This document shows positions 37,180 to 59,560 of a DNA stretch of 64,000 nucleotides, piece by piece. Source of the DNA: Bacteroidota bacterium (GTDB lineage Bacteria > Bacteroidota > Bacteroidia > AKYH767-A > OLB10). The DNA lies in the NCBI GenBank assembly GCA_031421935.1, contig JANOPQ010000185.1:11914-75913 (forward strand), read 5' to 3'. The position numbers and the translations under genes were made by a program. Under the pieces are notes generated by a model, which ran no database searches, was not told the origin of the DNA, and was given only the letters and a program-made list of their open reading frames with translations. How positions within the stretch are numbered: position 1 is the stretch's first letter; each line of letters opens with the position of its first letter.

Positions 37180-37189
37180 TTAAAGCAAT

Positions 37190-38068: not shown

Positions 38069-38076
38069 ACATAAAC

Positions 38077-39989: not shown

Positions 39990-39993
39990 ATCT

Positions 39994-42311: not shown

Positions 42312-42344
42312 AAAAAGAAAAAAGAGGCCGGTTTTGCCGACCTC
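42312..42344 (-). terminator. orphan minus-strand terminator-like hairpin
   Basis: On the minus strand, gaggtcgg-caaaa-ccggcctc followed by TTTTTTCTTTTT. No minus-strand ORF lies upstream of it. Confidence 0.4.
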
Positions 42345-42850
42345 CTTGGAACTAATGAAAAGTATAAAAAAATGACAATTTGTTATTTATATTTTGGAAA
42401 TGTGATATATTGCGACAAATTTGATTTTCAAATTGCTGTGGAGCAACAAGTTAAGGTTCTATTTTGCTCGGTTCTTTGAATAAGTAAGCTAGGATCTAGG
42501 CATTCTTAAGAGGAGTGATGAATTGCAAATCAGTTAAAGAGTTTAATTTTTATAGGAGGCTGAAGGATTTTATTAACGTAATGAAGTGCCGTTTTTTGAT
42601 TTAATAATTTTTACAAAGAAGAGAAGGCAAAGTGAATTTTAGCTTATGCTAGTATTAAATTGAAATAAACTTTTGGGTGTGTTATTCATGTTACAGGCGG
42701 TTGTTAACATTAATTTAAAAGAGAGTTTATTTAATCAATCGGTTTTACAATTTGGTAATGGTAAGATAATTTGAAAAGTATTCATTTCGGATTTCTGGTT
42801 TCTACTTTTGCATTCAATAAAATTCTAAACTTCTCATCGCAGCTGAAATC

Positions 42851-44956
42851 ATGAAAAAATTTACCATCTTATTCTTGTCCTTCATATTATTGTACCAATT
42901 GGGAAGTAGCCAAAATGGTTTGGAAGGGGTCATTGTAGAAAAATATTATATTTCTAATGCTGCTGATGCAGCCGGAAGTTCTGGTGTGTTACCAACTGGA
43001 TCTACTACCTATCGCATTTTTATTGATTTGCTGCCAGGTTATACATTTCAAGCTGCATACGGTGTTCCTAATCATGAACTTCGTTTCCAAACTACTACTT
43101 CTTTTTTCAACAATGAAGATTACGGTGCTACCACACCTACTTTTAGTAAAACAAATGCTAGAAATAATACCGTAATGTTAGATTCTTGGTTTAGTGGCGG
43201 AGCCTCTTGTGGAGGTAATTTTGGTATTTTGAAACCAGAAGATGGAGTAGCAGGTGGAACCAATGTTATTAATGCAAATGGAATTTTAGCAAACAACGAC
43301 CCTCTCGCAGGTATTCCTTTAACTGCACAGGATGGAATTTATACAGCTGTAACTCCTTCTGTAACCGTACTCGGTTTTACTCCAGCTCAGTTAGATGTGA
43401 TCGACGCAATTAGTAATGTTGGAAATTTAATTTCTACAACGAATGCTTCATGGGCTGTTTTGGGTGGTTCAACAGGCCCAATTCCATCTGTAAATAAAAT
43501 ACTAATAGCACAGTTTACGACGAATGGTACATTTTCTTTTAAATTAAATATTCAAATTGGAACTCCTATGCCTGGTGTTTCTCAGAATTTTGTTGCTGAA
43601 AATGCAACCGGAAACGAAATTCTTTTCCCTGCATTAATTTATTCCTCTGTTTCTCTTCCTACAGCAGCAGTATCTATCGCAACCAATGTCCCATTCCCGG
43701 TTTGTACCGGAACATCAGTGGTTTTTACCGCTACTCCTGTAAATGGTGGTGCTACCCCTTCTTATCAATGGAAGAGGAATGGCGCTAACGTAGGTACCAA
43801 TAGCCCTACGTATACTACTTCCGGACTTGTTGCCAACAATGTCATTACCTGCGTAATGACTTCCAGTATTGCTGGGGCGCTGAATAATCCGGCTACGTCA
43901 AATGCGATCACAGCACAAATAATTGCAAAACCTGTAGCCAATATTGTATCTACCGGACCTACCACCTACTGCTCCAGTGCGAATGCCTGTACATTATCAA
44001 CTACGGCTGTAGCGGGTGACACGTATTTATGGTTTAAAGGGTCTACAAGCATTGCCAATTCTAACAGTCCCACGTATGTTCCAAACTCTACTACTTCTAA
44101 AACGTACAAAGTACAAGTAACAAATAGTGGTGGTTGTAGCAAAACATCCAGCACCGTAAGTATTACAGTAAATCCGTTACCGGTTGCAACGGTAACCATT
44201 TCCGGACCTACTACGTTTTGTAAAGGCTCAAATGCTTGTACGCTGACAGCGAACAGTGGCGCAGGACTTACTTACCAATGGAAAAAAGGAAGCGTTAATG
44301 AGGCTGGAGCTACCGGAATTTCTTTTCAACCTAATGCTACAAGCACTGGTTATAAAGTTCAAGTCACCAATGCAAATGGTTGTTCTAAAACTTCTAGTGC
44401 AACAGCTATAATCGCTAACGCACTTCCAACTGCAACAATTACCCCACAAGGTCCTACTACTTTTTGTAGTGGTGACAGCGTAGTTTTAAAGGCTAATAGC
44501 GGGGCTGGATTAACTTATCAGTGGATTAAAGGCGTTATACCACAAGCCGGTCAAACGTCAATTAATTACACAGCTAAATCACAAGCTTCTTATAAAGTAA
44601 CTGTAACGAATGCTAATGGTTGTACAAAAAATTCATCATCGGTTTCAATAACTGTTAATTGTCGTGAAGGGGATTCATTCGGAATTTCTGATGGAAATGA
44701 AAGTCTTTCTACTTATCCAAATCCAACGAATGGTCCATTCACAATAAATTATTATAACAATGAATTAATTTATACTGATGCACAAATAGTAATTCTAGAT
44801 GTTTTAGGTCGAGTGATTTATACGGAGGAAGTTGAAATTGTTGATGGAGTATTTAACAAAGAACTTTCGTTGGAGAACCCATTAGTGAATGGAATGTATT
44901 TTGTTTCCTTAAACTATAGTGGAAAGGGAATTACCAATAAGTTCTTGGTTGATTAA
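42851..44956 (+). CDS. T9SS cargo protein: conserved N-domain (paralog A1) + 4 SprB-like Ig repeats + type-A CTD
   Basis: Signal peptide, then GLEGVIVEKYYIS N-domain shared with 4 other genes. Repeats with C.G....L.A.SGAGLTYQW.KG pattern. C-terminal YPNPTNGPFTI...MYFVSL...KFLVD. Confidence 0.75.
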   Translation: MKKFTILFLSFILLYQLGSSQNGLEGVIVEKYYISNAADAAGSSGVLPTGSTTYRIFIDLLPGYTFQAAYGVPNHELRFQTTTSFFNNEDYGATTPTFSKTNARNNTVMLDSWFSGGASCGGNFGILKPEDGVAGGTNVINANGILANNDPLAGIPLTAQDGIYTAVTPSVTVLGFTPAQLDVIDAISNVGNLISTTNASWAVLGGSTGPIPSVNKILIAQFTTNGTFSFKLNIQIGTPMPGVSQNFVAENATGNEILFPALIYSSVSLPTAAVSIATNVPFPVCTGTSVVFTATPVNGGATPSYQWKRNGANVGTNSPTYTTSGLVANNVITCVMTSSIAGALNNPATSNAITAQIIAKPVANIVSTGPTTYCSSANACTLSTTAVAGDTYLWFKGSTSIANSNSPTYVPNSTTSKTYKVQVTNSGGCSKTSSTVSITVNPLPVATVTISGPTTFCKGSNACTLTANSGAGLTYQWKKGSVNEAGATGISFQPNATSTGYKVQVTNANGCSKTSSATAIIANALPTATITPQGPTTFCSGDSVVLKANSGAGLTYQWIKGVIPQAGQTSINYTAKSQASYKVTVTNANGCTKNSSSVSITVNCREGDSFGISDGNESLSTYPNPTNGPFTINYYNNELIYTDAQIVILDVLGRVIYTEEVEIVDGVFNKELSLENPLVNGMYFVSLNYSGKGITNKFLVD

Positions 44957-45003
44957 TGTACATTTATTAGCATAAATTTCAAAAAGTTTAATTCAAGTTA
45001 GTA

Positions 45004-46110
45004 ATGAAAAAGTATTGTTGGTGTTATTTGTTTTTTTGTTTTATATTGAATTCAAATGCAAATGCACAAAAAGGGTTGGAGAATATTATAGTGGAGAAGT
45101 ATTATATTTCTACAGCTGCCGATACAATAGGAACAGAGCTAGGAGGGTATCTTCCTATTGGCTCTGTTACTTATCGTGTGTATGCCGACTTAACTCCTGT
45201 TCATCGACTTCAAGCCATTTATGGGGAAGCCCAACATGAATTAAAAATTGCTACTACAACTCGTTTTTTTAATTGTGCAAAAAATGATGGAAAGTCATCC
45301 ACTGACATAGAACCTTCTTTTCTTAAAGAAAGCACTTTGCTGTTGGATTCATGGGTCAGTGTAGGTGCTGCATGCTTAGATTATCAAGCTGTGTTGAAAT
45401 CAATGGATGATTCGCTTCCCACTTTTGTTGAAAGTAATGAACTGAATATTTTGAGAAATGAAGAAAAGGATCTAGGTATTCCATTGACAATAGTAGATGG
45501 AATGAAGAAGTTGAAACTACAACCAGGTCCTGTGTTTTTCAATTTCGATAAGGAGTTGCAAAATTTCCAGTATGCATTTCGAGATTCAGTAAATGGCATC
45601 ATCAGTACACTCAATGGTGCTTGGGCTTCTTTTGGTGGATCTGTGGGCCCACACCCTCAAAATCAAGTTTTGTTAGGTCAATTTACTACCGATGGTGTAT
45701 TTAGTTTTGAATTGAATTTGTTAATAGCTATTCCAGGAGGAGGTTCTGAAAAGTTTGTCGCAAAAAATCCGGTAGATAGCGAATTTGTGTTTCCAGCTTT
45801 AATTTATACTTCTTCACCTAACAATAAGTCGCCTCAAATCTTGTTGGCTGTTGATCAACAGCAAAAGAAGAAAGGAGTAAGTGCAATTGAATTATTGGCA
45901 ACGGCCAGTGATGAGGATGGAAAAGTAGTAGCTGTCGATTTTTATGTTAATGATAGATTGGTTTATACAGATTCTACTTTTCCGTTTGCATTTAGCTATA
46001 ATGGAAATTCAAAGGATGCCATAGTATCAGCTTCTGCCATAGACGATAAGGGAACTAAATGCAGATCTAAAAATATATTTCTTTCTGGTACTATTTCTCA
46101 GCACGATTAA
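45004..46110 (+). CDS. secreted protein: conserved N-domain (paralog A2) + C-terminal Ig-like domain; no CTD
   Basis: Signal peptide + GLENIIVEKYYIS N-domain. C-terminal Ig-like module (ASDEDGKVVAVDFYVNDRLVYTDSTFPFAFSY). Confidence 0.65.
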   Translation: MKKYCWCYLFFCFILNSNANAQKGLENIIVEKYYISTAADTIGTELGGYLPIGSVTYRVYADLTPVHRLQAIYGEAQHELKIATTTRFFNCAKNDGKSSTDIEPSFLKESTLLLDSWVSVGAACLDYQAVLKSMDDSLPTFVESNELNILRNEEKDLGIPLTIVDGMKKLKLQPGPVFFNFDKELQNFQYAFRDSVNGIISTLNGAWASFGGSVGPHPQNQVLLGQFTTDGVFSFELNLLIAIPGGGSEKFVAKNPVDSEFVFPALIYTSSPNNKSPQILLAVDQQQKKKGVSAIELLATASDEDGKVVAVDFYVNDRLVYTDSTFPFAFSYNGNSKDAIVSASAIDDKGTKCRSKNIFLSGTISQHD

Positions 46111-46301
46111 TAACCAGGTTTGTTAAATTATTGTTTTCAATTGGTACCAATTTTGGTATTCCTTAACTCAAAGTTAATCTTCTTTTAAACAATAATAAAG
46201 GGTAATTGTTGAGTTTTGTCGTCTGATTGCTTCTATACAAAGCAACTGATTTTGGAACTAGTATACTTAACATTATCAATTAATATTTAATACCATTTAT
46301 T

Positions 46302-47390
46302 ATGAAAAAATTAATACTCCTTTCTGGACTTCTCATGACCAGCTTGTTTCTTCAAGCACAAAATGGGTTGGAAAATATCATTGTAGAAAGATACTATGTA
46401 TCGGAGCCAAATGATACAAATGCAAATTCTACTGGAGGTATTCTTCCTGTGGGATCTGTAACCTACCGCATTTATGTGGATATGTTACCAGGATATAAAT
46501 TTCAAGTATGTTACGGAGTTCCAACTCATGAAATGAGAATTGAAACTTCTACTTTGTTTTTTAATAATGAAGATCGTGGCTCTACATCACCTAATTTCTC
46601 CTTTGTGAATGCAGCAAAGAATACCGTAATGCTCGATTCATGGTTGTCAGTCGGAGCAGCATGTAATGGTTATATGGGAGTTTTGAAAACAGAAGATAAT
46701 GGAGTAAATAACATCATTAATAACTTTTCGCCACAGGTGTTGCAAGGTACAGATGCTTCTGCCGGAATTCCATTGACTACGCAAGATGGTTTGATTTTAA
46801 GTGCTCCAGAGCCTTTTAATGAATTAGGTTTGACAAATGATATTATCGTTTTTGATAATCAGAATGATGGTACAAATGGACCTTTGTTTTCAAGTTTTAA
46901 CGGTTCTTGGGTAGCTTTAAATGGAGCTTCAGGTCCTGATACTTCGATTAACAAAGTATTAATAGCGCAAATTACAACCGACGGAACTTTCTGCTTTAAA
47001 TTGAATGTGCAATTACGCTCTCCAATACCTGGTGTTGTTGAAAATTATGTTGCTGACAGCCCAACTGGAAATGAAATTGCTTTTCCAGGTTTACAATATT
47101 GTTCAAATGTTGGAAATCCAGAGTTTGCAGTGGAAGGTCCTGCGTTTAGTTTGTATCCAAATCCAACGCATGATATTTTTAGTATGTGGGTTTTTGCAAG
47201 CAGACAACCTGGAATATACAATTACAAAATTTATTCGATGGATGGAAAGCAGATGTTGAGTAAATCTTTAGGCGTTACTCAAGCTGATGTAATGGAGAAA
47301 GTGGATTTGTCAGCTTATCCTTCTGGAATATATTTTGTGGAACTTTCTGTTGAAGGACACTCTTCTACCAAGAAACTAATTAAAAATTAA
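46302..47390 (+). CDS. T9SS cargo protein: conserved N-domain (paralog A3) + type-A CTD
   Basis: GLENIIVERYYVS N-domain; C-terminal LYPNPTHDIFS...IYFVEL...KKLIKN. Confidence 0.75.
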   Translation: MKKLILLSGLLMTSLFLQAQNGLENIIVERYYVSEPNDTNANSTGGILPVGSVTYRIYVDMLPGYKFQVCYGVPTHEMRIETSTLFFNNEDRGSTSPNFSFVNAAKNTVMLDSWLSVGAACNGYMGVLKTEDNGVNNIINNFSPQVLQGTDASAGIPLTTQDGLILSAPEPFNELGLTNDIIVFDNQNDGTNGPLFSSFNGSWVALNGASGPDTSINKVLIAQITTDGTFCFKLNVQLRSPIPGVVENYVADSPTGNEIAFPGLQYCSNVGNPEFAVEGPAFSLYPNPTHDIFSMWVFASRQPGIYNYKIYSMDGKQMLSKSLGVTQADVMEKVDLSAYPSGIYFVELSVEGHSSTKKLIKN

Positions 47391-47442
47391 TTGTAACTGG
47401 TAAATAGTTCTAGTTTGATTAATTCTTGAAATTATTAAGTTA

Positions 47443-50400
47443 ATGATGAATGTATTGTATCGTTTGTTAATTGTAATAGGCTTCCTATTTTTATTTGTTA
47501 ATTCTGCAAAATCACAAGGCGTGATTCGAGGAAAAATAACAGATGCAAATGGAGAAACATTGATTGGAGTAACTGTCGTTGAGAAAGCAAATCCAAGCAA
47601 TGGACAAGTTAGCGATTTAGATGGTAATTATTCGATAAAGATTGTAAATAGTGAACCTGTCGTTTTGTTAATCACTTATGTTGGCTTTACTACTATTGAA
47701 CAAACTTTTCAGTTAGCGAATAATGAAATTAAATTACAAAACTTTGTTTTGAAAAGCGCTGCAACTGAAGTTAAAGAAGTGGAAATTGAAGCTAAAGCAA
47801 TTAAAGCTGCAGATTACTATATGGAGAATATGAAGAAAAAGTCGGCAACAACCATCGACTATGTTTCTTCAGAAACCATGCGTAAAACTGGTGATAATAA
47901 TGTATCTAATGCCATCGCTCGGATCACAGGTGTTTCTACAAGTAGTGCCGGTTTCATTACAGTAAGAGGCATTGGTGATCGATACGTGCGTACTACTATT
48001 AATGGAGCAACCATTCCAACATTAGATCCATTTACCAGTAATATCAAATTGGATTTTATTCCAGCAAATTTGGTCGACAATATTATCATTACGAAAACGG
48101 CTTCTCCTGATCTTCCTGGAAATTGGGCAGGCGCTTATATTTCTGTCGAAACAAAGGATTACCCAGAAAAATTATCGATTACGGTGGAATCACAAATCGG
48201 ATATAATTCACAGAGTACTTTTAAAAATGTATTAACAACAGATGGAAGTGCTACCGATTGGTTAGGATATGATGATGGATTCAGAGATCGTGATCATAAC
48301 CACGTGCAATATATTAATCGTCCTACGCAGTATCAAGAACTATGTGCATTGGGTTTGAAAGATTATTTTGCTGGCTTGGGAGTAACAACGAGTTGGGATC
48401 AAGGTACTGAAGCTGGAAATAATTATTTCAAATTGGGACTTATTCAATTAGGATTATTAGGGGCAGCAGAGATTAATGACCCAGTAGCTTACAATAACGC
48501 ATTATCATTATATGCTGCGAATTATGAATTGCAGGCTTTTGATAAAGTAAATGAATCTTTGCCGGTGTATGGAAAATCTTTTCCTAATAATTGGATTCCG
48601 TTTAAGAAGAAAGCTCCACTTAACTTCAGTCAAAGTTTTGGAATCGGTAATCAAATAAACATAGGCAAGAACGATGTTATTGGATTTTTATTTGGATTGA
48701 AGTATAATAGCTCGGTCTCATATGATCCATCTGCCAGCGGTACACGTATTGAGAAGCGAGGCGCTGAAGAGCAAACTTTATATACTTCTTCTCAAAACTT
48801 GAGTCGAGAAGCCAATGGATGGAGTGCTTTGATGAATTTGGCTTATAAATTTAACCCGAATAATTCAGTCTCTTTTTTATTTATGCCTAATCTGAATGGA
48901 ACTAATAACACACGCGAAATTTACCAAAATGATCTGATTGATTTTCCTGGATTAAGTTCCACTGTCTATGATCAATATTATGAGGAGCGTAAACAGTATA
49001 TTTATCAAGCAAAGTCAGAAAATTATTTTCCGAAGTTGAAGACAAAAGTAGAATTAAATGCATCTTATGCTGATGGAAATAGTGATGTTCCTGACTTTAA
49101 AACATGGAATGTACTCGATCTAAATGGACAGCTTTTAAGTGGGATAGGAGGAAACAGTAGATTTTTTAGATATCTTGATGAAAATGTACTTGATACAAGA
49201 GCAAATATTTTGTTTCCCATAAATGAGAAACCTGGTCTAAATCGTGACTTTAGTTTTGGAGCTTCAAGAGTATGGCAGGAGCGAGATTTTCAACAGTATT
49301 CATACAGTCTAGGTGCAACTGATAGCAGTGGAAATATTCAATCAGCTTCTTATTTTATTCCCAATAATGATTTAGATGCATTTTTAGATCCTTCGGAGTT
49401 TGATATAGAAAGTTATTTTTTTCAAGGGATTCCGAAGCGCCGAGCTAAGAAATTTTATTTTGATGATCCAAACCCAGCAAATCATACTATCGGTAATTCA
49501 GAAGTGTTAGCCGCTTTTGCAATGTTGGATTATAGTTTGAATTTTAGATGGCGCGCTTCCGTTGGTTTGCGAGTTGAAAAGGCAAAGCTGTTTGCTGATG
49601 TGTATGAATACGATCAGAAAGGGTATGGAGTAAATGATTTTAGACGCCGATTTGAAACCGATATTTTTTTGCCAAATCCCGGTAATTTTAATTTAACAAA
49701 GTATCTCCCAAGTCTTAATGTGATTTATAAGCTTAAAGAAGAAGAGAAAGTGGCTATGAATTTAAGAGCGAACTATAGTCGTACTACTGCTTATCCTAGT
49801 ATTCGCGAAATCACAGAAACCAATGTGTATGATTTCGAACTGCGAACTTTTGTTTTTGGTAATTCTAATTTGAGAGAAGTGGATATTGATAATTTCGATG
49901 TTCGATGGGAAACGTTTTATAAATCCGGTACTTCTATATCTTTAAGTGGATTTTATAAAGATTTTGCTAATCATATTGAATTGGTTAATTCAGTAGGAGG
50001 ATATTCTTGGCAAAATGTTGATAATTCATTCGTAGCCGGAATTGAAATAGAAGGAAAGAAAAATCTTACAAAACAATTTGAAGTTCGTGCTAATATTGCC
50101 GTTATTAATTCTGAAACAAATTTTAATTATAGAACAGTAAATGTAGTGAATGGAATTCGTACAGAAGTTCCTGGTGAGTTAATAAAGCGCAAAATGTTTG
50201 GTCAATCTCCCTATGTAGTAAATGCGATCGTTAGTTATCGCTTGGAGAAATCTAAAATTTTAATCACCGCCTCTTATAATATTCAAGGTAAGAAATTGGT
50301 AATTGCAAGTGATGAATTGGCTCCTGCCGTTTATGAGCTACCAAGAAACGTATTGGACATGAAGATAACAAAGGAGTTAGGAAAGCATTTTGTACTAGCT

Positions 50401-50532
50401 GTTAATATCAGAGATATTTTAAATGAACCCGTAACACGAGAGTATGATAATGATAGTTCTCTTGGTAAGAAAAATTACGATAGCTTTCGTTGGGGAACAA
50501 ATTATAATTTAGGATTAACCTATCGACTCTAA
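47443..50532 (+). CDS. SusC/RagA-like TonB-dependent outer-membrane receptor
   Basis: 1029 aa. N-terminal carboxypeptidase-regulatory-like domain (RGKITDANGETLIGVTVV), plug, and a barrel ending in an aromatic (…LTYRL). No SusD-like gene follows. Confidence 0.8.
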   Translation: MMNVLYRLLIVIGFLFLFVNSAKSQGVIRGKITDANGETLIGVTVVEKANPSNGQVSDLDGNYSIKIVNSEPVVLLITYVGFTTIEQTFQLANNEIKLQNFVLKSAATEVKEVEIEAKAIKAADYYMENMKKKSATTIDYVSSETMRKTGDNNVSNAIARITGVSTSSAGFITVRGIGDRYVRTTINGATIPTLDPFTSNIKLDFIPANLVDNIIITKTASPDLPGNWAGAYISVETKDYPEKLSITVESQIGYNSQSTFKNVLTTDGSATDWLGYDDGFRDRDHNHVQYINRPTQYQELCALGLKDYFAGLGVTTSWDQGTEAGNNYFKLGLIQLGLLGAAEINDPVAYNNALSLYAANYELQAFDKVNESLPVYGKSFPNNWIPFKKKAPLNFSQSFGIGNQINIGKNDVIGFLFGLKYNSSVSYDPSASGTRIEKRGAEEQTLYTSSQNLSREANGWSALMNLAYKFNPNNSVSFLFMPNLNGTNNTREIYQNDLIDFPGLSSTVYDQYYEERKQYIYQAKSENYFPKLKTKVELNASYADGNSDVPDFKTWNVLDLNGQLLSGIGGNSRFFRYLDENVLDTRANILFPINEKPGLNRDFSFGASRVWQERDFQQYSYSLGATDSSGNIQSASYFIPNNDLDAFLDPSEFDIESYFFQGIPKRRAKKFYFDDPNPANHTIGNSEVLAAFAMLDYSLNFRWRASVGLRVEKAKLFADVYEYDQKGYGVNDFRRRFETDIFLPNPGNFNLTKYLPSLNVIYKLKEEEKVAMNLRANYSRTTAYPSIREITETNVYDFELRTFVFGNSNLREVDIDNFDVRWETFYKSGTSISLSGFYKDFANHIELVNSVGGYSWQNVDNSFVAGIEIEGKKNLTKQFEVRANIAVINSETNFNYRTVNVVNGIRTEVPGELIKRKMFGQSPYVVNAIVSYRLEKSKILITASYNIQGKKLVIASDELAPAVYELPRNVLDMKITKELGKHFVLAVNIRDILNEPVTREYDNDSSLGKKNYDSFRWGTNYNLGLTYRL

Positions 50533-50543
50533 TTCGCTAGAAT

Positions 50544-51908
50544 ATGAAAACATATACTATTACTAAAATTCTAATTTGCTTCTTCCTTTTTATGGTAGGG
50601 ATGTTGTCAAGTCATGTTGCTACCTCTCAAATTGCAGGATTGCAAGTGGAAACTTATTATATCGCTGATGCAAATGATGCGACCGACACCACGGGTGGCC
50701 GATCACTTTCTGTAGGTGAAAAGACATTTCGTATTTATGTTGAATTGATGCCAGGTTCAAGAGTGAAAAAAGTGTACGGAGATGTTTATCACCCATTAAC
50801 TATATCAAGTACGTATCCCTTTTATAATAATATTGATCGACCTGCTAGCGTTTTTGGATATCAAATAAAGTCATCTTGGATCTCAGATAATCCAACGCTG
50901 GCGTTGGATAGTTGGTTAACAATTGGAATGGCTACTACCACACAGAAAGGGGTATTGAAATCTTTAGATCCCGATGGTGATGATATTGCAGGTTTGAATA
51001 ATACAGGTGGAACGGCTTTGATTACTTCAGGACTTTTAGCGAATACAGACCCCTTAATTGGAATTCCTTTAACTACAGCAGATGGGTTAGTTCCAAATAA
51101 TTTCGCATTAGGGCAATGGACTGATGTCGGGTTTAAAGATTTGAGTGGAAATGATACTACTGTTTTTGGACCTATCGCTATAGGAAATAATCTTACATGT
51201 AATAATTGCGCTATTCAACAAAATAATGCTCTAAGCGGTCCAACCGTTGACTCCACGAAGGTCCTCATCGCTCAGCTAACTACTTTTGGCGAACTCTCAT
51301 TTCAAATAAATTTAACTATTGAAGAGTTAGATAGTTTAGGAAATTATTCATTGGTTAATTATGTTGCAACTGATGATACGCTTTTATCAGGTGAACAAGT
51401 AAGTCCATTTTTACAATACCCTCAGGCTTGTGGTTGTAGAGATACTCGGTATTTGGAATATGGTGCCAATTATGGTTGTGATAATATGGATTCTTGTAAA
51501 ACACTAATTGTTTTTGGTTGTACAGATACTATGGCTTGTAATTATGATCCAAGCGTTAATTTTAATATAAGCACTTTATGCTGTTATCCTGGTAAATGTA
51601 ATGATAGAGATATAAGTCTTGTTTGTCCCGAATTAAATGGAGGTAGATTTGCAAAATCTACAGTGAATGTATTTCCTAATCCAGCCGCAGATCAGATTTC
51701 GATTGAAGTATATTCAAAGAGTGTGGGTGATGCATCAGTGAAATTCTTAGATGTGATGGGAAAGGTAATTCAAGATTTCTCGTTCACATTAGATAGTGAG
51801 ATTACGAAGAGAAATATCGATATTTCTTTTTTAAGGGATGGGGTGTACTTTATTTTAGTTTCTCATCATGATAAATCAGAATCGAAACGTATTGTAAAAA
51901 TAAAATAA
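50544..51908 (+). CDS. T9SS cargo protein: conserved N-domain (paralog A4) + Cys-rich segment + type-A CTD
   Basis: GLQVETYYIADANDATD N-domain variant. Cys-rich middle (CGCRD...CDNMDSC...CNYDPS...CCYPGKCND). C-terminal VFPNPAADQISIEVY...VYFILV...KIK. Confidence 0.7.
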   Translation: MKTYTITKILICFFLFMVGMLSSHVATSQIAGLQVETYYIADANDATDTTGGRSLSVGEKTFRIYVELMPGSRVKKVYGDVYHPLTISSTYPFYNNIDRPASVFGYQIKSSWISDNPTLALDSWLTIGMATTTQKGVLKSLDPDGDDIAGLNNTGGTALITSGLLANTDPLIGIPLTTADGLVPNNFALGQWTDVGFKDLSGNDTTVFGPIAIGNNLTCNNCAIQQNNALSGPTVDSTKVLIAQLTTFGELSFQINLTIEELDSLGNYSLVNYVATDDTLLSGEQVSPFLQYPQACGCRDTRYLEYGANYGCDNMDSCKTLIVFGCTDTMACNYDPSVNFNISTLCCYPGKCNDRDISLVCPELNGGRFAKSTVNVFPNPAADQISIEVYSKSVGDASVKFLDVMGKVIQDFSFTLDSEITKRNIDISFLRDGVYFILVSHHDKSESKRIVKIK

Positions 51909-51909
51909 G

Positions 51910-52701
51910 ATGGAATTTATATTTTCTGGAATTAAACATTTTATGATATTGATTATGGTTATTGTAAAAGAATCCCTGCAAGCAATAGGAAATTATTATA
52001 AGTCAAGCTTGCCTTTACTTTTTATTTGTTTTTTCTTTTTTGTCACATCTTGTGATGATAAGGAAGAAATGGAAGTTCCTGTTGAAGTCAGTTCAATGAC
52101 GGATATTGATGGCAATGTTTATAAAACAGTTAAAATCGGTAACCAATGGTGGATGGCTGAAAATTTAAATGTTACAACTTATCGTAATGGTATTCCAATG
52201 ACTTTATTGATAGATGATCTGGTTTGGAATGATACTATTCCGGGGTACTGCACATATAATGGCGGTTATGGTAAGTTGTATAATGGATACGCTGTAGTGG
52301 ATACAAATAATATCGCTCCAATAGGTTGGCATATACCTACTGATCTGGATTGGAAAAAATTAGAAGCTTATTTGGGGATGAGTGGAGGAGCTGCTGATAA
52401 AACAGGATGGAGAGGTACTTCCGAAGGTGATAAATTAAAAGCTCAAGGTATAGATAAGTGGTTCCGATATGGTGAAGTATGGGGTACGGATAGTTATCAA
52501 TTTAGAGCACTAGGAGGATCTTGCAGAATTTATAATGGAAGTTTTGGAAATCCAGGTATTAACTATGCTGGATTTTGGTGGACATCCTCAGTAAATGCGA
52601 ATGATTTATTTTTTCGATATCTCGACTATAAAAAATCTGGAATTTATCGCGGATATGATACCATGAAAATGGGTTGCAGTATACGTTGTGTTAAGGATTA
52701 G
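51910..52701 (+). CDS. FISUMP (Fibrobacter succinogenes major paralogous) domain protein
   Basis: DGNVYKTVKIGNQWWMAENLN...GWHIPTDLDWKKLE...GFWWTSS, the FISUMP hallmark. Confidence 0.75.
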   Translation: MEFIFSGIKHFMILIMVIVKESLQAIGNYYKSSLPLLFICFFFFVTSCDDKEEMEVPVEVSSMTDIDGNVYKTVKIGNQWWMAENLNVTTYRNGIPMTLLIDDLVWNDTIPGYCTYNGGYGKLYNGYAVVDTNNIAPIGWHIPTDLDWKKLEAYLGMSGGAADKTGWRGTSEGDKLKAQGIDKWFRYGEVWGTDSYQFRALGGSCRIYNGSFGNPGINYAGFWWTSSVNANDLFFRYLDYKKSGIYRGYDTMKMGCSIRCVKD

Positions 52702-52728
52702 TAAATACTATTTTGATTAGAATAGAAG

Positions 52729-52757
52729 GAGCGACGTAATGTCGCTTTCTTTTCGAT
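52729..52757 (+). terminator. putative intrinsic terminator after the FISUMP gene
   Basis: agcgac-gtaat-gtcgct stem followed by a T-rich tract (ttcttttcgatgtttttt). Confidence 0.5.
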
Positions 52758-52981
52758 GTTTTTTCAAGAATAATGTAGTTTATTTTGTGATAACTGATGT
52801 TATTTTTTTTGACCCATATTAAGTTAATGTGAACCATTTATTTTTTTCTGAAATCGGTTAACATACAAGAGAAATTTAAATAAAGATTTGATAAGTTAAT
52901 GGAAATGTCCAACTGCATTTCGCGCCCTACATTTGCCTCATTCTTCAGCTGAATTAAAAACAAAAAAATCTATTAAAAAAA

Positions 52982-54607
52982 ATGAAAAAACTTATCTTAA
53001 AAATGACTACTGCAGCAGCTATGCTTGTTGCTATGTCCAATGTGAGCAATGCTCAAAACAATTTAGGAGCCGATTGCGGTTGTCCTACTGTATCTTCAAG
53101 ACCAGTAGTGAATCTTGGATTGCGCGCGGATGTGAATGGTAACTTAACGGATGTCAATACAACTTTGTATTGCGATACGGTTTATACCATTGGTGCTCCA
53201 GGAAACGTAGCTCAAAAAATTTATGTTTCTAGTGGAAAAACGTTAACTGTTAATCCAGGAACAGTTGTAAAGACTTATGATACGAATGTAAACTCTGCAG
53301 CTAGTTCATTGGTTGTTACAAGAGGTGGTAAAATTAATGCTGCTGGTTCTCCAACTTGTGGTATTGTATTTACTTCTATTCTTGATAACATGGATGGAAC
53401 ACATCCAATCGGAAATCGTGGAGAATGGGGTGGTGTAGTAGTGATGGGTAATGCACAAGTAAATAGAATTGCAAATCCTGCAGGTGTTACGACTCAAAAT
53501 GGCGAAATGTTTATGGAAGGACTTTCTACCGCAGATACTCGCTCTATTTTTGGTGGCGGTTTAACTTACAATAATAATGACAATTCTGGAATATTGAAGT
53601 ATGTTTCTATTCGTTTTGCTGGTGTTACTATTGCTCAAGATGTTGAGTTAAACGGATTGTCTTTAGGTGCAGTGGGAAGTGGAACTACTATCGAGAATAT
53701 CGAGATTCTATCTAATGATGATGATGGTATCGAATTTTGGGGTGGTACTGTAAATGTAAAGTATGCTAATTTCATGTTCGTTAATGACGATGGTTTTGAT
53801 TTCGATATTAACTACGATGGAAAGATGCAATTCTTATTTGGTTTGAAAGCACCTGCTGCTATTGCTTCTGGTGGAGAAAGTGGTTTCGAGTGGGATGGTG
53901 ACGAAGGTTCATCTACATTCTATAATAACTTTTCTCAGGCTAGTACTGGTTGGAGATCTCACCCTGTAGTTTACAATGCTACTATTATTGGAAATGGTTC
54001 AAATACAAGTGCGAGTGGTACAGGTACAACAACTGGAAACCCATTCGGAATTAGCTTTAAAGCTGATGCTGAAGGTGAAATCTATAATTCAATCTTCACA
54101 GGTTTCCGTGGTGGTGTGAATATGCAAAATGGAGTAGATTCATCTAAAATTAACTATGATTTAAATTTGATAAAAATCGGATGTAACCATTTCGTAGGTT
54201 GTACTTTCCCTGCTTCTGCTGGAAACGTGCAATTATCAGGTACTGATTCTACGAAATTCTTCACAACGGATAATAATGTAAACACAAACTCTATTGCTGG
54301 TTTCGATTATTCTTTCGCAATCACTTCTAGCGCAACAAATCCTGTAACAGATAATATCGATGTTGTTCCTTCTAGTAACTTATCTACTGTTTGTACTCCT
54401 CCTGCTGATGGATTTTTTACTCCTGCAAACTTCCGTGGTGCATTTGAAGCTGGTAAGAAGCCTTGGTTAAACAAGTGGGCTTACACTTCAATTGTAAACG
54501 TTACTCCAGGTTTAGCACCATGTCCAACTGATTTTACAGGTGACGGTGTAACTAACACTTCTGACTTCTTAATCTTTGTTGCTCAATTTAACCTTTCTTG
54601 TAATTAA
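52982..54607 (+). CDS. secreted parallel beta-helix-like protein with C-terminal dockerin-like repeat
   Basis: Signal peptide. Gly/Asn/Thr-rich repetitive beta-helix-like body. C-terminal DFTGDGVTNTSDFLIFVAQF matches the dockerin Ca-binding loop plus helix. Confidence 0.6.
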   Translation: MKKLILKMTTAAAMLVAMSNVSNAQNNLGADCGCPTVSSRPVVNLGLRADVNGNLTDVNTTLYCDTVYTIGAPGNVAQKIYVSSGKTLTVNPGTVVKTYDTNVNSAASSLVVTRGGKINAAGSPTCGIVFTSILDNMDGTHPIGNRGEWGGVVVMGNAQVNRIANPAGVTTQNGEMFMEGLSTADTRSIFGGGLTYNNNDNSGILKYVSIRFAGVTIAQDVELNGLSLGAVGSGTTIENIEILSNDDDGIEFWGGTVNVKYANFMFVNDDGFDFDINYDGKMQFLFGLKAPAAIASGGESGFEWDGDEGSSTFYNNFSQASTGWRSHPVVYNATIIGNGSNTSASGTGTTTGNPFGISFKADAEGEIYNSIFTGFRGGVNMQNGVDSSKINYDLNLIKIGCNHFVGCTFPASAGNVQLSGTDSTKFFTTDNNVNTNSIAGFDYSFAITSSATNPVTDNIDVVPSSNLSTVCTPPADGFFTPANFRGAFEAGKKPWLNKWAYTSIVNVTPGLAPCPTDFTGDGVTNTSDFLIFVAQFNLSCN

Positions 54608-54644
54608 TATTCTTTAAATCAATAAATCATTAACTAAAAAAATT

Positions 54645-57600
54645 ATGAAAATTAAAAATATATTAGCAGGACTTGCTTTCTTGCTAGTAGGAACCGCTGC
54701 GCATTCTCAAGGTTTAGAGAATATTATCGTAGAGAAGTACTATGTCTCAAATGCAGCGGATGCTGCTTCTGCCAATGCTGATTTAACGTCAGCTGGCTAT
54801 CCAACTGGTACGCTACCAGTAGGATCTGTAACCTTCCGTGTTTATGCGGATTTATTACCAGGTTGGGGAATTCAATCCGTATACGGAATTCCTTCTCATC
54901 CATTGGTATTAACTACTTCAACAAATTTCTATAACCATTCAAATGGTAATACTACTGGAGGAAATTTCTCTAGCAGTAGTGCAGCTATCATTGGTTCTGG
55001 AACAACTTTTTTAGATTCTTATTTGTCTTGTGGTGCTATTGCTCCTGCACGTTTCGGAGTATTGAAAGCAGAAGATGCGGTTGCAGGTGGAGCTAATTTA
55101 GCTTTCAATCCAGTTACAGTTCTTGCTAATAATGATCCAAGTGCAGCTCCAGCAATTACAACTGCTGACGGTATGTATAACACGGCTGGTGTACCTTCTT
55201 TGCTTTCTCTTACTTTGTTAGGTGATGCAGCGAGCCCATTGGTAAACATGTTTACGGATGGTTCTGTAGTTGGAAATAATTACACAAGTACAAATACTTC
55301 TTGGGGAGTATTGGGTGAGCAAATTGGTGCTTTTCCTACTGGAACTAACCGTGTGTTATTAGGTCAGTTTACTTCTAATGGTGTGTTTCACTTTGAATTA
55401 AATATTCAAATTCGTAACAATACTACTTTCGCAATTCAAAACTATGTTTCTTCAAATCCAACAGGTGCTGAAATTTTGATGCCTAGCTTGTCAGGAACAT
55501 TTAACGTAGCTAACATCAGCCCAACAATCAGTATCACCAATCCTTTGAATGGTGCTTCTTTCTTTGTAGGTGATGCAGTTGCTATCAATGCTACTGCTGC
55601 TGATGCAGACGGTAGTGTTGCTTCTGTGGAATTTTTTGTAAATGGTGTTTCAATCGGAGTTGATAATACGGCTCCTTATACTACTACATGGACTGCTACT
55701 TCAGGTAACAAAGCGTTAACAGCTAGAGTTACTGATAATGCAGGTGCTCAAACAACTTCTGCTGCTGTGAATATCACAGTGGGTGTAAACGTTGCTCCAA
55801 CAGTAAGTCTTACCGCTCCTGCAAATGCTGCTAACGTTGTTGGTGGAACTGCGGTAAACATTGATGCGAATGCTGCTGATGCTGATGGTACTGTTGCTAA
55901 TGTTGAATTTTTTGTTGATGGTGTTTCTGTAGGTGTTGATGCAACTTCTCCTTATTCAGTTAGCTGGACCAGTGGTGCTCCTTTCGGTAATCGTGTAATT
56001 ACTGCACGTGCAACTGATAACTTCGGTGCTCAAACTACTTCTGCATCTAGAACAATATTTATATTGAATCCTGCAGGTGCTCCTTATTTGATAGGTAATA
56101 TCGTGAGTACTTGTGTTCCAAGTAACTTCTGTTTGCCAATTAAAGCGTCTACATTGAGTCCAGTTTCAAACGTGATCGGTTATGATATCGTTCTTGATTA
56201 TGATGTAACTAAAGTTACTCCTACTGGTGCTATCGTAAGAAGTAATGATTTACTTTCTCCAACTTACAACTACAACCAAGTAAGCACGGCTCATTCAATT
56301 GATGCGGTTAATGGTAAAATGCGTATCGCTGTATACTTCAATTCTGGAGCTCCTGCTGCTGCACGTTTCTCTGGTTCTGGTGAAATCATTTGTGTTGAAT
56401 TTGCAAAGACTGCTGGTTTCTTGAATGTAGATACTGCTATTTTCAAAGCGGATACTTTGTTAGAAAGCCGTATCACAGGTGTTCAATTACAACCTGTTGA
56501 TTCTGGTTTGTTCTCTACGTATAAGGATAGTATCTTTAATAGCTCATTGCGTTTCTGGGAAGATAATAGCCCAATCCGTTACAATGCGGCAGCTCCTAGT
56601 GATTATTTAATCACTAATATCTACGGAAACAGTATTGCATGTAATAACCGATCATTGGTTGCAGTTCAACCTGACGTGAATGGTAATTTCTCTTACAATA
56701 TCAATAATGGTCCAAAGTTAGAAGTGATTAAGGATATCGCTGCTGCAACAGATGTACAACCTGTAGTAAATGGTTTCGATGCGTTCTTAACACGTCGTGT
56801 ATTAATTCTTGATGCTAGCTTCACTCCTTCAGTTTATCAAATGATTGCAATGGATGTGAATATGGATGGTGTGGTTTCTTCTGGTGACCTTACTCAAATT
56901 AACCAACGTGCGGTATTGTTCATCCCTGAATTCCAACAAGCTTGGAACTATGATGCAAGTGGTAATCCAATCCTTCCTGTACGTCCTTCACGTGACTGGC
57001 AGTTTGTTGATGTTACAACAGTAAGTTCTACTCCGGCTTATTATATTTCTACTACCTATCCTTCAAATGATGGTATCGGTTTCAGTAAGAACAAAGTTCC
57101 GGTTGTTGCTTTCTGTAGCAATATTCCAGTTCTTGATTACTCTGGTTGCCCAATTATCGGTACTGAGTCTTACAAAGGAATCTTAGTGGGTGATGTGAAT
57201 GGTAATTACTCTTCTAACAATGGCGCACCAAGTCCTTTCAGAGTAGGTTCTACTGATAAGGTGAGCTTCAATTTGTCAAATGCAATTATTGCAAATGGTT
57301 TTGTAACGATTCCTGTTTCTTTCCAATCGAGTGAATCAGTAAATGCAATTGACTTCTCATTGAAAATGAACAATGCTAAACTTAGCTTTGATGGTGTTGA
57401 AGATTTAACTGGTAAAATGATGATCATGTCTCATTATAACACCAACGATCAAACCATCCGTTTTACTTCGAATAGCATGGATGCAATCGAGAAAAATACG
57501 CAAGTATTAAACGTTCGTTTCGCTATCAATGGAAATGAAATGACAGCTAGTGATTTATCTAATTTAACTGCTTACTTGAATGGAGAGCACGTACAATTGG

Positions 57601-57869
57601 ATGTGAACACTGAGCGTTCACTTTCTGCTGAAAAGTTGAATGTATCTGTTTATCCAAATCCAGTGAATAGCATGTTGAATGTATTAACATCTGAAAATGC
57701 TCAAATCGAATTATCTGATATGAGTGGTCGTGTAGTTCTTGCAGTTGCTAATGTTTTAGCAGGTGAGAAACTTGAAATGGATGTGAAAACATTATCAAAT
57801 GGTGTTTACATGTTGAAAGTTTGGAATGGTGGATTTATCTCTACCAGCAAAGTAGTAGTGAAACACTAA
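54645..57869 (+). CDS. scaffoldin-like T9SS cargo: N-domain (paralog A5) + 2 Ig-like repeats + cohesin-like module + dockerin-like repeat + cohesin-like module + type-A CTD
   Basis: GLENIIVEKYYVS N-domain. Two ~95-aa Ig repeats (ADADGSVASVEFFVNGVSIGVD...). Cohesin-like LPIKASTLSPVSNVIGYDIVLDYDVTKV...EIICVEFAKT and VTIPVSFQSSESVNAIDFSLKMNNAKLSFDGVE. Dockerin-like DVNMDGVVSSGDLTQINQRAV. C-terminal VYPNPVNSMLNV...VYMLKV...VVKH. Confidence 0.65.
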   Translation: MKIKNILAGLAFLLVGTAAHSQGLENIIVEKYYVSNAADAASANADLTSAGYPTGTLPVGSVTFRVYADLLPGWGIQSVYGIPSHPLVLTTSTNFYNHSNGNTTGGNFSSSSAAIIGSGTTFLDSYLSCGAIAPARFGVLKAEDAVAGGANLAFNPVTVLANNDPSAAPAITTADGMYNTAGVPSLLSLTLLGDAASPLVNMFTDGSVVGNNYTSTNTSWGVLGEQIGAFPTGTNRVLLGQFTSNGVFHFELNIQIRNNTTFAIQNYVSSNPTGAEILMPSLSGTFNVANISPTISITNPLNGASFFVGDAVAINATAADADGSVASVEFFVNGVSIGVDNTAPYTTTWTATSGNKALTARVTDNAGAQTTSAAVNITVGVNVAPTVSLTAPANAANVVGGTAVNIDANAADADGTVANVEFFVDGVSVGVDATSPYSVSWTSGAPFGNRVITARATDNFGAQTTSASRTIFILNPAGAPYLIGNIVSTCVPSNFCLPIKASTLSPVSNVIGYDIVLDYDVTKVTPTGAIVRSNDLLSPTYNYNQVSTAHSIDAVNGKMRIAVYFNSGAPAAARFSGSGEIICVEFAKTAGFLNVDTAIFKADTLLESRITGVQLQPVDSGLFSTYKDSIFNSSLRFWEDNSPIRYNAAAPSDYLITNIYGNSIACNNRSLVAVQPDVNGNFSYNINNGPKLEVIKDIAAATDVQPVVNGFDAFLTRRVLILDASFTPSVYQMIAMDVNMDGVVSSGDLTQINQRAVLFIPEFQQAWNYDASGNPILPVRPSRDWQFVDVTTVSSTPAYYISTTYPSNDGIGFSKNKVPVVAFCSNIPVLDYSGCPIIGTESYKGILVGDVNGNYSSNNGAPSPFRVGSTDKVSFNLSNAIIANGFVTIPVSFQSSESVNAIDFSLKMNNAKLSFDGVEDLTGKMMIMSHYNTNDQTIRFTSNSMDAIEKNTQVLNVRFAINGNEMTASDLSNLTAYLNGEHVQLDVNTERSLSAEKLNVSVYPNPVNSMLNVLTSENAQIELSDMSGRVVLAVANVLAGEKLEMDVKTLSNGVYMLKVWNGGFISTSKVVVKH

Positions 57870-57887
57870 TTGAATTGGGGTTTTGAC

Positions 57888-57923
57888 AAGGCTTCTGGAT
57901 TTTTCCCGAAGCCTTTTTTTTGT
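57888..57923 (+). terminator. intrinsic terminator after the scaffoldin-like gene
   Basis: aaggcttc...gaagcctt 8-bp stem followed by TTTTTTTT. Confidence 0.7.
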
Positions 57924-58023
57924 TATGAAAATTAACATTGAAGTAATTTTAATATTGTCTTAACATCCCCTTGCAACTTAAAAAGTAATTTAGCAGTGTA
58001 TTTTAAATTAAAAAATTCAGTAG

Positions 58024-58623
58024 GTGAAGTCGTTTATATTATTTCTTTTTTTAGTGTGGTCAATATTTTTTGACAGCAGCTGCCTTGCCCAAATAAAGAA
58101 TACTATTTTTCAAGACCAAAATAGGGAGTATTTTTACATAAATTCAACGCAAGAAATGAAGGATCGAAATACTTTCTTTTCAGTTTCTAGTAGCGCTGAT
58201 ACAATAGATTTTAATAGAAGTAGCTTTATAGCTATTATTTCTTCCTCAGGCCCTACTTCCATTTGCCCCGGACAAAGCGTTGTATTAACCGGAAACGGTG
58301 GCAGTGGTTACACTTATTTGTGGACCACAGGTCAAACAACTAAGTCTATTACAGTAAACCAACCAGGGGTGTATGGATTAACTATTTTCTGTTCGAAGTG
58401 CAATAACGCTACTTATGTGGCAAATCCCATCACTATTAACACCAATACATTAGTGACAGATTTAAATACCAATGGCATCGTAGATGTGGCGGATTATAAC
58501 ATTTTTTTGGGCAAGTACCTCACACCCTGCCTCGGTTGCCAGGAGGATTTTTATCCGGATGGTTTTGTTGACACCCGGGATTATCTGATTTGGGTAGCCG
58601 ATATTTTTAAAACATGTAATTAA
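58024..58623 (+). CDS. small secreted protein: SprB-like Ig repeat + complete two-repeat dockerin-like C-terminal domain
   Basis: GTG start. Signal peptide. ICPGQSVVLTGNGGSGYTYLWTTGQTTKSITV (SprB-like). DLNTNGIVDVADYNIFLGKYL and DFYPDGFVDTRDYLIWVADIF form two dockerin-type repeats. Confidence 0.6.
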   Translation: MKSFILFLFLVWSIFFDSSCLAQIKNTIFQDQNREYFYINSTQEMKDRNTFFSVSSSADTIDFNRSSFIAIISSSGPTSICPGQSVVLTGNGGSGYTYLWTTGQTTKSITVNQPGVYGLTIFCSKCNNATYVANPITINTNTLVTDLNTNGIVDVADYNIFLGKYLTPCLGCQEDFYPDGFVDTRDYLIWVADIFKTCN

Positions 58624-58720
58624 TTAGTTGGGCGTTCTTTTAGTTAACAATTCCCTTACACAAGTATAATTCGCAGTTTACATCAATTTCATTTTGCAGT
58701 AGTAAATTTGTAAGATAGAA

Positions 58721-59560
58721 ATGGAAATCATGAAAAGTTTAAAAATAGTAGGATGTGCCTGGATGCTTATGCTCCTTTGTGCTCAACCCATCGCAGCAAA
58801 GTCTTTTGTTGTTAATGTTAGTGGATCTTCTGAAAGTTGCAAGAATTATGAGGTTATCAATGTTGCAGAACTTGCTAATGATGCAATGCTCGGTACCGTT
58901 TCTATTGATTCTGCCGATTCTGTTTTTTTTAGTATGAATAATGCTATTTATAATGGAACTCATGTTTCTTTTCCGATTTATTTTAATTCAGATGATTTAA
59001 TTTATTCATTCGATTATTCTTTTAAATACAATCACAATCGAATTACTTTTGATACGATATCAATGGAGCCTGCTGGACAACCATTATTAGCGTTTTTCCA
59101 TTATAATACCAACGATTCCACAGTACGTTTTACTTCAAGTAATCTCGTGGCTATTGCAAATGGAGTTCCTATCGCTATGATTCATTTTGATTTTGTTGGG
59201 GGTACCACTCCTTTGTTGGATTCTTCCGATTTGTATAACTTGAAAAGTTATTTGAATGGTGATGCAAGTTCCGAAGTGATTATTCCTCCTACAACTGTAG
59301 GTCTGAATGATAATTTAGCTGCTGAATGGGGCCTAAGCCTTTTTCCAGTACCCACAAGTAGCGAATTGAATGTTAAAATTAACCGTGATGCGAATATGGA
59401 AGTACTTTCGCTCGATGGAAAATTGGTGATGTCGAATGTTAATTTGTCTTTTCAAGGAATTAACACGTTGAATTTACAAGATCTTCAGAATGGTATTTAC
59501 CTGGTTCGCGTGATCAGTGAAGGAAGTGTTTTTTCTAAGAAGATTGTAATTGCAAAATAA
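58721..59560 (+). CDS. T9SS cargo with cohesin-like module + type-A CTD
   Basis: VSFPIYFNSDDLIYSFDYSFKYNHNRITFDTI...HYNTNDSTVRFTSSN is paralogous to the second cohesin-like module of 54645-57869. C-terminal LFPVPTSSELNV...IYLVRVI...IAK. Confidence 0.6.
   Translation: MEIMKSLKIVGCAWMLMLLCAQPIAAKSFVVNVSGSSESCKNYEVINVAELANDAMLGTVSIDSADSVFFSMNNAIYNGTHVSFPIYFNSDDLIYSFDYSFKYNHNRITFDTISMEPAGQPLLAFFHYNTNDSTVRFTSSNLVAIANGVPIAMIHFDFVGGTTPLLDSSDLYNLKSYLNGDASSEVIIPPTTVGLNDNLAAEWGLSLFPVPTSSELNVKINRDANMEVLSLDGKLVMSNVNLSFQGINTLNLQDLQNGIYLVRVISEGSVFSKKIVIAK

Follow-up and report, generated by a model that had tools for sequence, protein, structure and literature searches.

A family of unannotated N-terminal domains encoded around a TonB-dependent receptor in uncultured Bacteroidota and its possible part in SusD-less uptake

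The window analysed here is a stretch of 64,000 nt from a Bacteroidota genome assembly (contig JANOPQ010000185.1), and all coordinates below are positions within it. Between 42851 and 59560 it carries a series of open reading frames (ORFs), all on the forward strand, in which the genes of five paralogous secreted proteins (p1, p2, p3, p5 and p8) stand around the gene of a TonB-dependent receptor (TBDR). The paralogs have in common an N-terminal domain, for which the name ND is used here. Taking the evidence together, we give about even chances to the reading that ND is the ligand-capturing head of an uptake system of uncultured Bacteroidota, which resembles a polysaccharide utilisation locus (PUL), depends on the T9SS (type IX secretion system) and lacks SusD. 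The five paralog ORFs had been proposed in an earlier note on this DNA, and each of them was confirmed in its place and on the forward strand; the functional unit, which that note had ended at 57869, runs on to about 59560.

Gene content of the ND locus

Three ND genes precede the receptor. The first of them, p1 (42851-44956, 701 aa), encodes a signal peptide, ND (42914-43642), a series of repeats and a type-A C-terminal sorting domain (CTD) of the T9SS at residues 622-700. The repeats, earlier described as SprB-like, were identified as Pfam Ig_7, PKD_6 and PKD instead. It is followed by p2 (45004-46110, 368 aa), with a signal peptide of the signal peptidase I (SPI) type, ND (45070-45807) and one Big_7 immunoglobulin-like (Ig) domain that forms its C-terminal end; its sequence holds neither a CTD nor a lipobox. 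The third, p3 (46302-47390, 362 aa), consists of a signal peptide, ND (46362-47099) and a CTD, and lies in front of the TBDR (47443-50532, 1029 aa). Directly behind the receptor are p5 (50544-51908, 454 aa), in which ND (50628-51419) and the CTD are separated by a Cys-rich segment (51420-51668), and the gene of a FISUMP (Fib_succ_major) lipoprotein (51910-52701, 263 aa; Pfam E=1.9e-40). The Cys-rich linker of p5 (residues ~293-375) holds 12 Cys in about 80 residues, includes GCTDTMACNYDP and gave no Pfam match even at E<=10.

A terminator-like hairpin with a T-rich tail (52728-52748, forward strand) separates these genes from a second group. This begins with a secreted right-handed beta-helix protein (52982-54607, 541 aa), which carries a cluster of invariant acidic residues and ends in a Cys-flanked, dockerin-like module. 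Next comes p8 (54645-57869, 1074 aa), composed of ND (54708-55496), two Big_7 domains, a cohesin-like module, a dockerin-like module (56763-56906), a cohesin (57303-57611) and a CTD. The last two genes encode a secreted 199-aa protein (58024-58623), which ends in a two-segment dockerin-like module and has relatives at related loci, and a 279-aa protein (58721-59560), in which a cohesin-like module is joined to a CTD. Type-A sorting domains (Por_Secre_tail / TIGR04183) were matched in p1, p3, p5, p8 and the 279-aa protein with E-values from 2e-8 to 5e-13. The earlier view of the paralogs as mostly T9SS cargo accordingly stands for p1, p3, p5 and p8, and fails for p2 at 45004, which is ND plus one Big_7.

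The receptor is identified as a TonB-dependent one by its CarbopepD_reg_2 (E=1e-15) and Plug (E=3.3e-12) domains, to which a barrel is joined. Its barrel half matched TIGR01782 (residues 427-867), a model of a Xanthomonas/Caulobacter TBDR subfamily, with 163 bits, below the cut-off of 310 bits, and the NCBIfam models of SusC/RagA were not matched. No SusD-family Pfam match was found in the genes from 42851 to 59560, and the locus is not a canonical SusC/SusD locus in this respect. Searches of PDB sequences returned no close relatives of the TBDR, the FISUMP protein or the beta-helix protein, and therefore no clue to a substrate.

In the FISUMP protein the lipobox Cys is followed by DDKEE. A lipobox was present in 35 of 47 orthologs, 26 of which have an acidic stretch after the Cys (e.g. 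DDKEE, KKEEE), which we take to resemble the surface-export signal of Bacteroidota lipoproteins.

Orthologs of the 541-aa protein carry Pfam Beta_helix_4 (PF28492), and its AlphaFold2 (AF2) model is a right-handed beta-helix (pLDDT 83.8). Foldseek returned weak matches of this model, generic for the pectin-lyase fold, to glycoside hydrolase (GH) family 28, polysaccharide lyase families PL6 and PL9, carbohydrate esterase family CE8, alginate epimerases, tailspikes and an adhesin. The acidic cluster comprises D247, D248, E251, D269, D270, D273, D275, E303, D305 and D307, and the C-terminal module has invariant columns at C514, T516, D517, G522, D528, L530 and C540 among 67 orthologs. The protein probably acts on glycans as an enzyme, or else binds them.

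The cohesin-like module reported earlier for the paralog at 54645 is supported by a Pfam Cohesin match of p8 in two stretches (E=6.1e-9, 36.6 bits against a cut-off of 24.1 bits). The 279-aa protein is paralogous to the C-terminal region of p8 and aligns to its residues 867-1072 at E=1e-28, a span that includes the Cohesin match. C-terminal, Cys-flanked modules with a Ca-loop-like D-x-D-G-x-x-x-x-D-F pattern end both the beta-helix protein (54530-54607) and the 199-aa protein (58450-58623). They matched dockerin_GC at E=0.0055 and E=0.0017, respectively, and p8 matched Dockerin_1 weakly at E=0.0059, all three under the cut-offs.

ND as a domain family

ND starts one or two residues past the predicted signal-peptide cleavage site (AQ/SQ) and spans 243-264 residues, around 245 as a rule. 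Alignment of the five NDs gave identities of 35-54% to p1 and 40 invariant columns. Even the most divergent pair tested, p5 and p2, was matched by BLASTP at E=5e-24 over 225 residues, so that the similarity goes far beyond chance and is not restricted to the signal peptide. This bears out the conserved N-terminal domain proposed from the letters of the DNA, and the motifs quoted for it (GLENIIVEKYY, TYR.Y.D.LPG, LDSW, GIPLT..DG and VLIAQ.TT.G.F.F.LN.Q) were all found.

The domain had earlier been left without a named family, and every search made here leaves it so. The five isolated NDs had no match in Pfam-A even at E<=10; in the ND proteins Pfam-A recognised only the accessory domains (Ig_7, PKD_6, Big_7 and Por_Secre_tail), and in NCBIfam the T9SS sorting domain was the sole match, with none over ND. 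Precomputed Pfam annotation, which covers recent families such as PF28492, placed Por_Secre_tail on nearly all of 120 listed homologs, Ig-type families on two and nothing on ND. Searching PDB sequences with a profile of 85 ND sequences gave matches confined to the C-terminal sorting domain. One candidate relative, the periplasmic amino-acid-binding protein 9d5w, appeared with a five-sequence profile (E=0.0047, 19 bits), disappeared with the deeper one and was taken as a chance match.

For the p3 ND, AF2 with 85 sequences gave a model of very high confidence (pLDDT 95.7, pTM 0.93). Most of its regular beta structure lies in an N-terminal (3-62) and a C-terminal (175-230) set of strands, between which residues 63-174 form a long, well-ordered, loop-rich insert. 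Foldseek with this model gave as its best PDB match only E=0.17 at a TM score of 0.28, which points to no relative, and nothing in BFVD. A full-text literature search retrieved no account of the domain or of its gene cluster. ND thus forms a new domain family for which no relative could be detected; on our reading it is a compact, beta-rich extracellular domain that has not been described before.

The family is large. A word-indexed search returned more than 1188 homologs, mostly proteins of about 360 aa made of ND and Por_Secre_tail. Searched exhaustively with HMMER, 1.84 billion cluster representatives yielded 1387 ND clusters (50% identity) with a threshold of E<=1e-3 and 558 with E<=1e-30. 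Scanning one genome per GTDB species revealed 556 or more stretches that encode ND. The 75 best genome loci all belong to metagenome-assembled Bacteroidota of lakes, activated sludge and similar habitats, and none of these 75 comes from a cultured strain. An exact copy of the p3 protein was met only on short contigs of read assemblies. As far as seen, the ND system is widespread yet confined to uncultured lineages.

Partner domains were surveyed in 89 long family members, in two sets of 52 and 37. ND was always the distal N-terminal module in them, followed by Ig-like spacers and a T9SS CTD; Por_Secre_tail was present on 46 of the 52 and 26 of the 37 proteins, which agrees with the earlier picture of ND as an N-terminal head of modular proteins, most of them T9SS cargo. 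Recurrent partners were Big_7, Ig_7, PKD, Big_2, TSP3, EF-hand, MAM and cohesin/dockerin modules, and no catalytic domain was fused to ND in any of the 89. Some proteins of the family bear ND in tandem, in two to four copies; the 1036-aa protein P0121, for instance, has four matched ND stretches.

Two architectures include modules of the starch/glycogen type. P0221 combines ND and Big_7 with modules like the carbohydrate-binding modules (CBMs) CBM48/AMPK1_CBM/CBM20/CBM53 and a CTD, and P0203 combines ND with X25 and a dockerin; as sequence matches they provide a weak lead to a glycan ligand. ND itself had no match to the Pfam CBM models. Other unusual partners were a MopE-type Cu-binding motif with PKD_6 (P0210) and twelve Dicty_CTDC repeats (P0252).

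Conserved gene cluster and paralog classes

In 79 related loci ORFs were called and then searched with profiles of the window proteins. A common gene order emerged, with approximate product sizes as follows: ND (~270 aa), ND+CTD (~360 aa), TBDR (~1020 aa), ND with Cys-rich segment and CTD (~445 aa), FISUMP (~250 aa), beta-helix protein (~560 aa), ND with Big_7, cohesin and CTD (~1135 aa) and cohesin+CTD (~255 aa). Genome loci of 15 kb or more numbered 37; of these, 35 had the TBDR, 35 the Cys-rich ND protein, 34 FISUMP and 31 the beta-helix protein, with a median of four ND genes per locus. Median intergenic distances in the related loci are operon-like: 73 bp from ND to TBDR, 12 bp from TBDR to ND and 11 bp from ND to FISUMP. 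Gene order is permuted in three loci (L037, L076 and L058), yet the same components remain together. The link between ND and the receptor is therefore stronger than it had first appeared in the window, with the cluster recurring in dozens of species represented by metagenome-assembled genomes. The FISUMP lipoprotein, the beta-helix protein and the modules of cohesin/dockerin type, which the earlier note had not linked to the ND genes, belong to the system as well.

This coupling bears on a first alternative to the uptake reading, namely that as adhesins ND proteins attach the bacterium to particles, algae or other cells, or else serve gliding in the manner of SprB/RemA, and that the receptor is merely co-regulated, with no hand-off of a ligand. 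A head on Ig/PKD stalks with a CTD is the typical build of a T9SS adhesin, MAM, TSP3, SprB repeats and EF-hand among the partners are modules of adhesion type, and genes for an inner-membrane transporter or for catabolism are lacking at the locus. The tight, order-conserved association with the TBDR, including the 12-bp and 11-bp gaps, speaks against adhesion, and both the stalkless ND+CTD paralog and the CTD-less one are ill suited to adhesion at a distance. We regard this alternative as unlikely.

NDs cluster by gene position into orthologous groups, with p2, p3, p5 and p8 of the window in classes A, B, C and D, respectively, and a further positional class, that of p1, which was met in the closest relatives only (11 ORFs). 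Identities within classes are 52-64% in B, C and D and about 49% in A; class C, located behind the receptor, is the most divergent, with 37-39% identity to the other classes. As positional classes coincide with orthologous groups, the paralogs must be old and individually retained. Class B is always directly upstream of the receptor gene and class C starts at a median of 12 bp after the receptor stop codon, with the Cys-rich linker of p5 conserved in the latter class. Class A, two genes upstream of the receptor, consists mostly of proteins of about 270 aa with a signal peptide and ND only, or of ND with one Ig domain (with orthologs in loci L033, L035, L042, L051, L061 and others). Its members have an SPI signal peptide and usually neither a sorting domain nor a lipobox; a few orthologs do carry a CTD. 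By the usual rules for Bacteroidota, class A, and p2 in the window, would probably be periplasmic and not surface cargo. ND is consequently predicted on both sides of the outer membrane. The earlier suggestion of a binding or adhesive surface domain is in keeping with the partners of ND, which are spacers or binding modules and never enzymes, and has to be narrowed for this class.

The same polar residues recur in every class (numbered as in the p3 ND: E9, Y11, Y12, D18, T34, Y35, R36, H56, N68, D92, W94, K109, D112, D142, N197, Q203, T205, T206 and N215), which suggests one conserved functional site used in different positions. The same residues could, on a second alternative, belong to a catalytic centre, and ND would then be a new enzyme family, e.g. 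one that cleaves or modifies polysaccharides at the surface to yield importable fragments. The strongest point in favour of it is the unusually large number of invariant polar and charged residues across the classes (E9, R36, H56, D92, K109, D112, D142, Q203 and N215, plus Tyr and Trp), several of which lie on beta-strands; the Arg/Gln/His/Tyr set is, to our mind, presumably reminiscent of the catalytic sets of beta-sandwich polysaccharide lyases. However, Foldseek detected no likeness to any enzyme fold in the PDB, the four to five ND copies that a locus carries on different stalks, along with tandem copies, are more typical of binding modules, and a CTD-less, probably periplasmic copy is retained as well. 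Enzymatic activity of ND is in our view quite improbable, and binding, as the uptake reading has it, remains the preferred function.

The locus resembles two adjacent transcription units (42851-52701 and 52982-59560), since a gap of about 280 bp is conserved upstream of the beta-helix gene and in the window holds the hairpin at 52728-52748 and promoter-like TAnnTTTG elements. Ahead of both units (42700-42810 and 52857-52935) stand the same blocks in the same order, GTTAACAT, ATTTG(G/A)TAA(G)TT and a TAnnTTTG box. A related upstream motif, TAACCTAA, was found in 10 of 42 upstream regions and in 6 of 33 FISUMP/beta-helix gaps, as compared with a background of 0.04 per kb (L005-L079). A shared operator made of GTTAACAT and ATTTGrTAAGTT was considered and set aside, its spacing not being fixed and no regulator being assignable; the blocks are reported as an observation only. 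Rfam at gathering thresholds gave no match in the whole window, and hence no riboswitch pointing to a substrate.

A candidate SusD-less uptake system and its surroundings

The ND locus would represent a variant of TonB-dependent uptake loci with surface binding proteins, and synteny is the basis on which ND proteins are proposed to feed the receptor. Its mechanism may be hypothesised as follows. T9SS cargo is joined to the surface through C-terminal modification, and ND proteins would be exported by the T9SS and tethered by their CTDs. The same head would in this way be held at different distances from the membrane: directly in p3, on a Cys-rich linker in p5, on Ig stalks in p1 and on a long Ig-cohesin scaffold in p8. 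The beta-helix protein and its 199-aa partner may use their dockerin-like tails to dock onto cohesins in p8 and the 279-aa protein, and the beta-helix protein, tethered like this, could process or bind the substrate, with the FISUMP lipoprotein placed at the surface beside the receptor. A captured substrate, most likely an oligo- or polysaccharide, would be passed to the TBDR and imported, and the CTD-less paralog of the p2 class may take it over in the periplasm. The predicted periplasmic ND gives a hint that the ligand may be passed on intact. A glycan is the probable substrate; the modelled beta-helix, a fold class of many polysaccharide-active enzymes, and the invariant acidic cluster of that protein were counted in favour of the uptake reading.

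Several observations weigh against this reading. Class A, without a CTD, means that not every ND protein is a surface protein, and the many invariant charged residues of ND are equally compatible with a catalytic site. The starch-type CBM clue is confined to 2 of 89 proteins, the Foldseek matches of the beta-helix model are weak (TM 0.2-0.33) and the dockerin-like modules score under family thresholds. Finally, genes for an inner-membrane transporter, a regulator and a recognised catabolic or carbohydrate-active enzyme (CAZyme) are missing from the locus.

Among known systems, the closest parallels are PULs with a SusC/SusD core and binding proteins of the SusE/SusF or SGBP-B type (SGBP, surface glycan-binding protein), where binding heads on Ig-like spacers, the role proposed for ND, are likewise encoded beside a TonB-dependent transporter (TBDT). 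A surface lipoprotein, a surface-located glycan-active protein and several non-catalytic binders per locus would be further common traits. In contrast to such PULs, the ND locus has no SusD gene and its receptor no SusC/RagA match, the ND heads are predicted T9SS cargo and not lipoproteins, ND resembles no known SGBP or CBM in sequence or fold, and neither a regulator nor a recognised CAZyme is encoded.

In Cytophaga hutchinsonii, an environmental Bacteroidota species that uses the T9SS, the atypical SusD-less PUL chu_1276-chu_1280 encodes outer-membrane proteins that are TBDT-like, together with a non-catalytic binding protein that is essential (PMC12016534). Likened by description, it is a precedent for a SusD-less TBDT cluster with an essential binding protein (PMC12016534). 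However, that protein is bimodular, CBM-like and not an ND, the cluster includes a known endoglucanase, and a paralog series, cohesin/dockerin modules and FISUMP are not reported there (PMC12016534).

In a third alternative, ND proteins may be structural partners or lids of the receptor, i.e. stand-ins for SusD in assembly or gating, and not agents of long-range capture. Two ND genes, of classes B and C, always directly flank the receptor gene, SusD is absent, and for the C. hutchinsonii binding protein physical presence counted more than binding activity (PMC12016534). A lid would leave unexplained the NDs on long stalks and scaffolds (p1, p8), the tandem ND proteins and the CTD-less class, and given C-terminal T9SS linkage the N-terminal head of the long forms sits away from the membrane. 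We rate this as very improbable and retain ligand capture as the preferred function of ND.

The possible docking of partners onto p8 recalls cellulosomes and amylosomes, with which the locus shares a cohesin above threshold in p8 and its homolog in the 279-aa protein, and perhaps the Ca-loop dockerin-like ends of the beta-helix and 199-aa proteins. Unlike in those systems, the scaffold would belong to a Gram-negative bacterium and be anchored by a T9SS CTD, and the dockerin-like modules are short, Cys-flanked, below thresholds and borne by no recognised CAZyme.

An analogy of architecture may also be drawn with the NEAT-domain proteins of the Isd haem relay, in which one ligand-binding beta-sandwich domain, with haem as its ligand, occurs in several paralogs per locus, sortase-anchored in the wall of Gram-positive bacteria. 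Here, too, paralogs would be arranged at different depths and heights around a membrane transporter, and some have tandem copies. The analogy does not extend to homology, and nothing at the ND locus points to haem or iron. A more specific version of the uptake reading, which we consider quite unlikely, would make ND a new-fold ligand shuttle working on both sides of the outer membrane, at graded heights on the surface by way of the T9SS and the cohesin scaffold and as a free paralog in the periplasm, so that one intact ligand is relayed NEAT-like through a SusD-less TBDR. Such a relay, if true, would be an undescribed form of nutrient acquisition, perhaps widespread in uncultured Bacteroidota of freshwater and activated sludge.

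If the uptake reading is correct, uncultured Bacteroidota of lakes and wastewater, a large group, capture nutrients by an apparatus unlike SusC/SusD, overlooked because its key domain is unannotated everywhere; its heads, of a fold without a solved relative, would be exported by the T9SS and not be lipoproteins, and would be combined with assembly of the cohesin/dockerin type. Once defined, the ND family, with its 1387 or more clusters at 50% identity, would give an annotation to T9SS cargo proteins now called 'hypothetical', thousands in number, and supply a marker for a conserved uptake locus, the substrate of which could then be traced in metatranscriptomes. ND is moreover a well-predicted, compact target for structure determination and ligand screening.

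Beyond the components listed, nothing else was conserved around the ND cluster in the related loci. In the window it is preceded by a divergent polysaccharide-biosynthesis cluster on the reverse strand (33337-42230), which comprises a GT4 glycosyltransferase (33337-34509), a GH5-like protein (34564-35751), a Wzy/O-antigen-ligase-like protein (35902-37179), four tandem sulfotransferase paralogs (37190-40899) and a Wzx-type flippase (40896-42230). Its gene content suggests a sulfated surface polysaccharide. This sulfotransferase/Wzx cluster recurs in close relatives only (14 loci), and was for this reason judged to be outside the ND system. Just upstream of the flippase start, a strong terminator-like hairpin of 11 pairs with a T-run lies on the reverse strand (42321-42347), where there is no gene to terminate; it may be bidirectional, or else indicate a small transcript that is not annotated.

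Directly downstream of the locus, on the opposite strand, lies a GH1 beta-glucosidase (59590-60975, E=2e-135), and behind it come a GT28-like glycosyltransferase and a metallophosphoesterase; no cluster attributable to GH1 stood out in the recurrent families of the related loci. Further away, an 882-aa ORF (5861-8509, forward strand) had no Pfam match at E<=1e-5. Two additional proteins with T9SS signals were recorded: a 613-aa protein with four CHRD domains and a type-A CTD (21098-22939, reverse strand), and a 1038-aa protein with about ten PKD domains and a type-B (CHU_C) T9SS signal (92-3208, forward strand).

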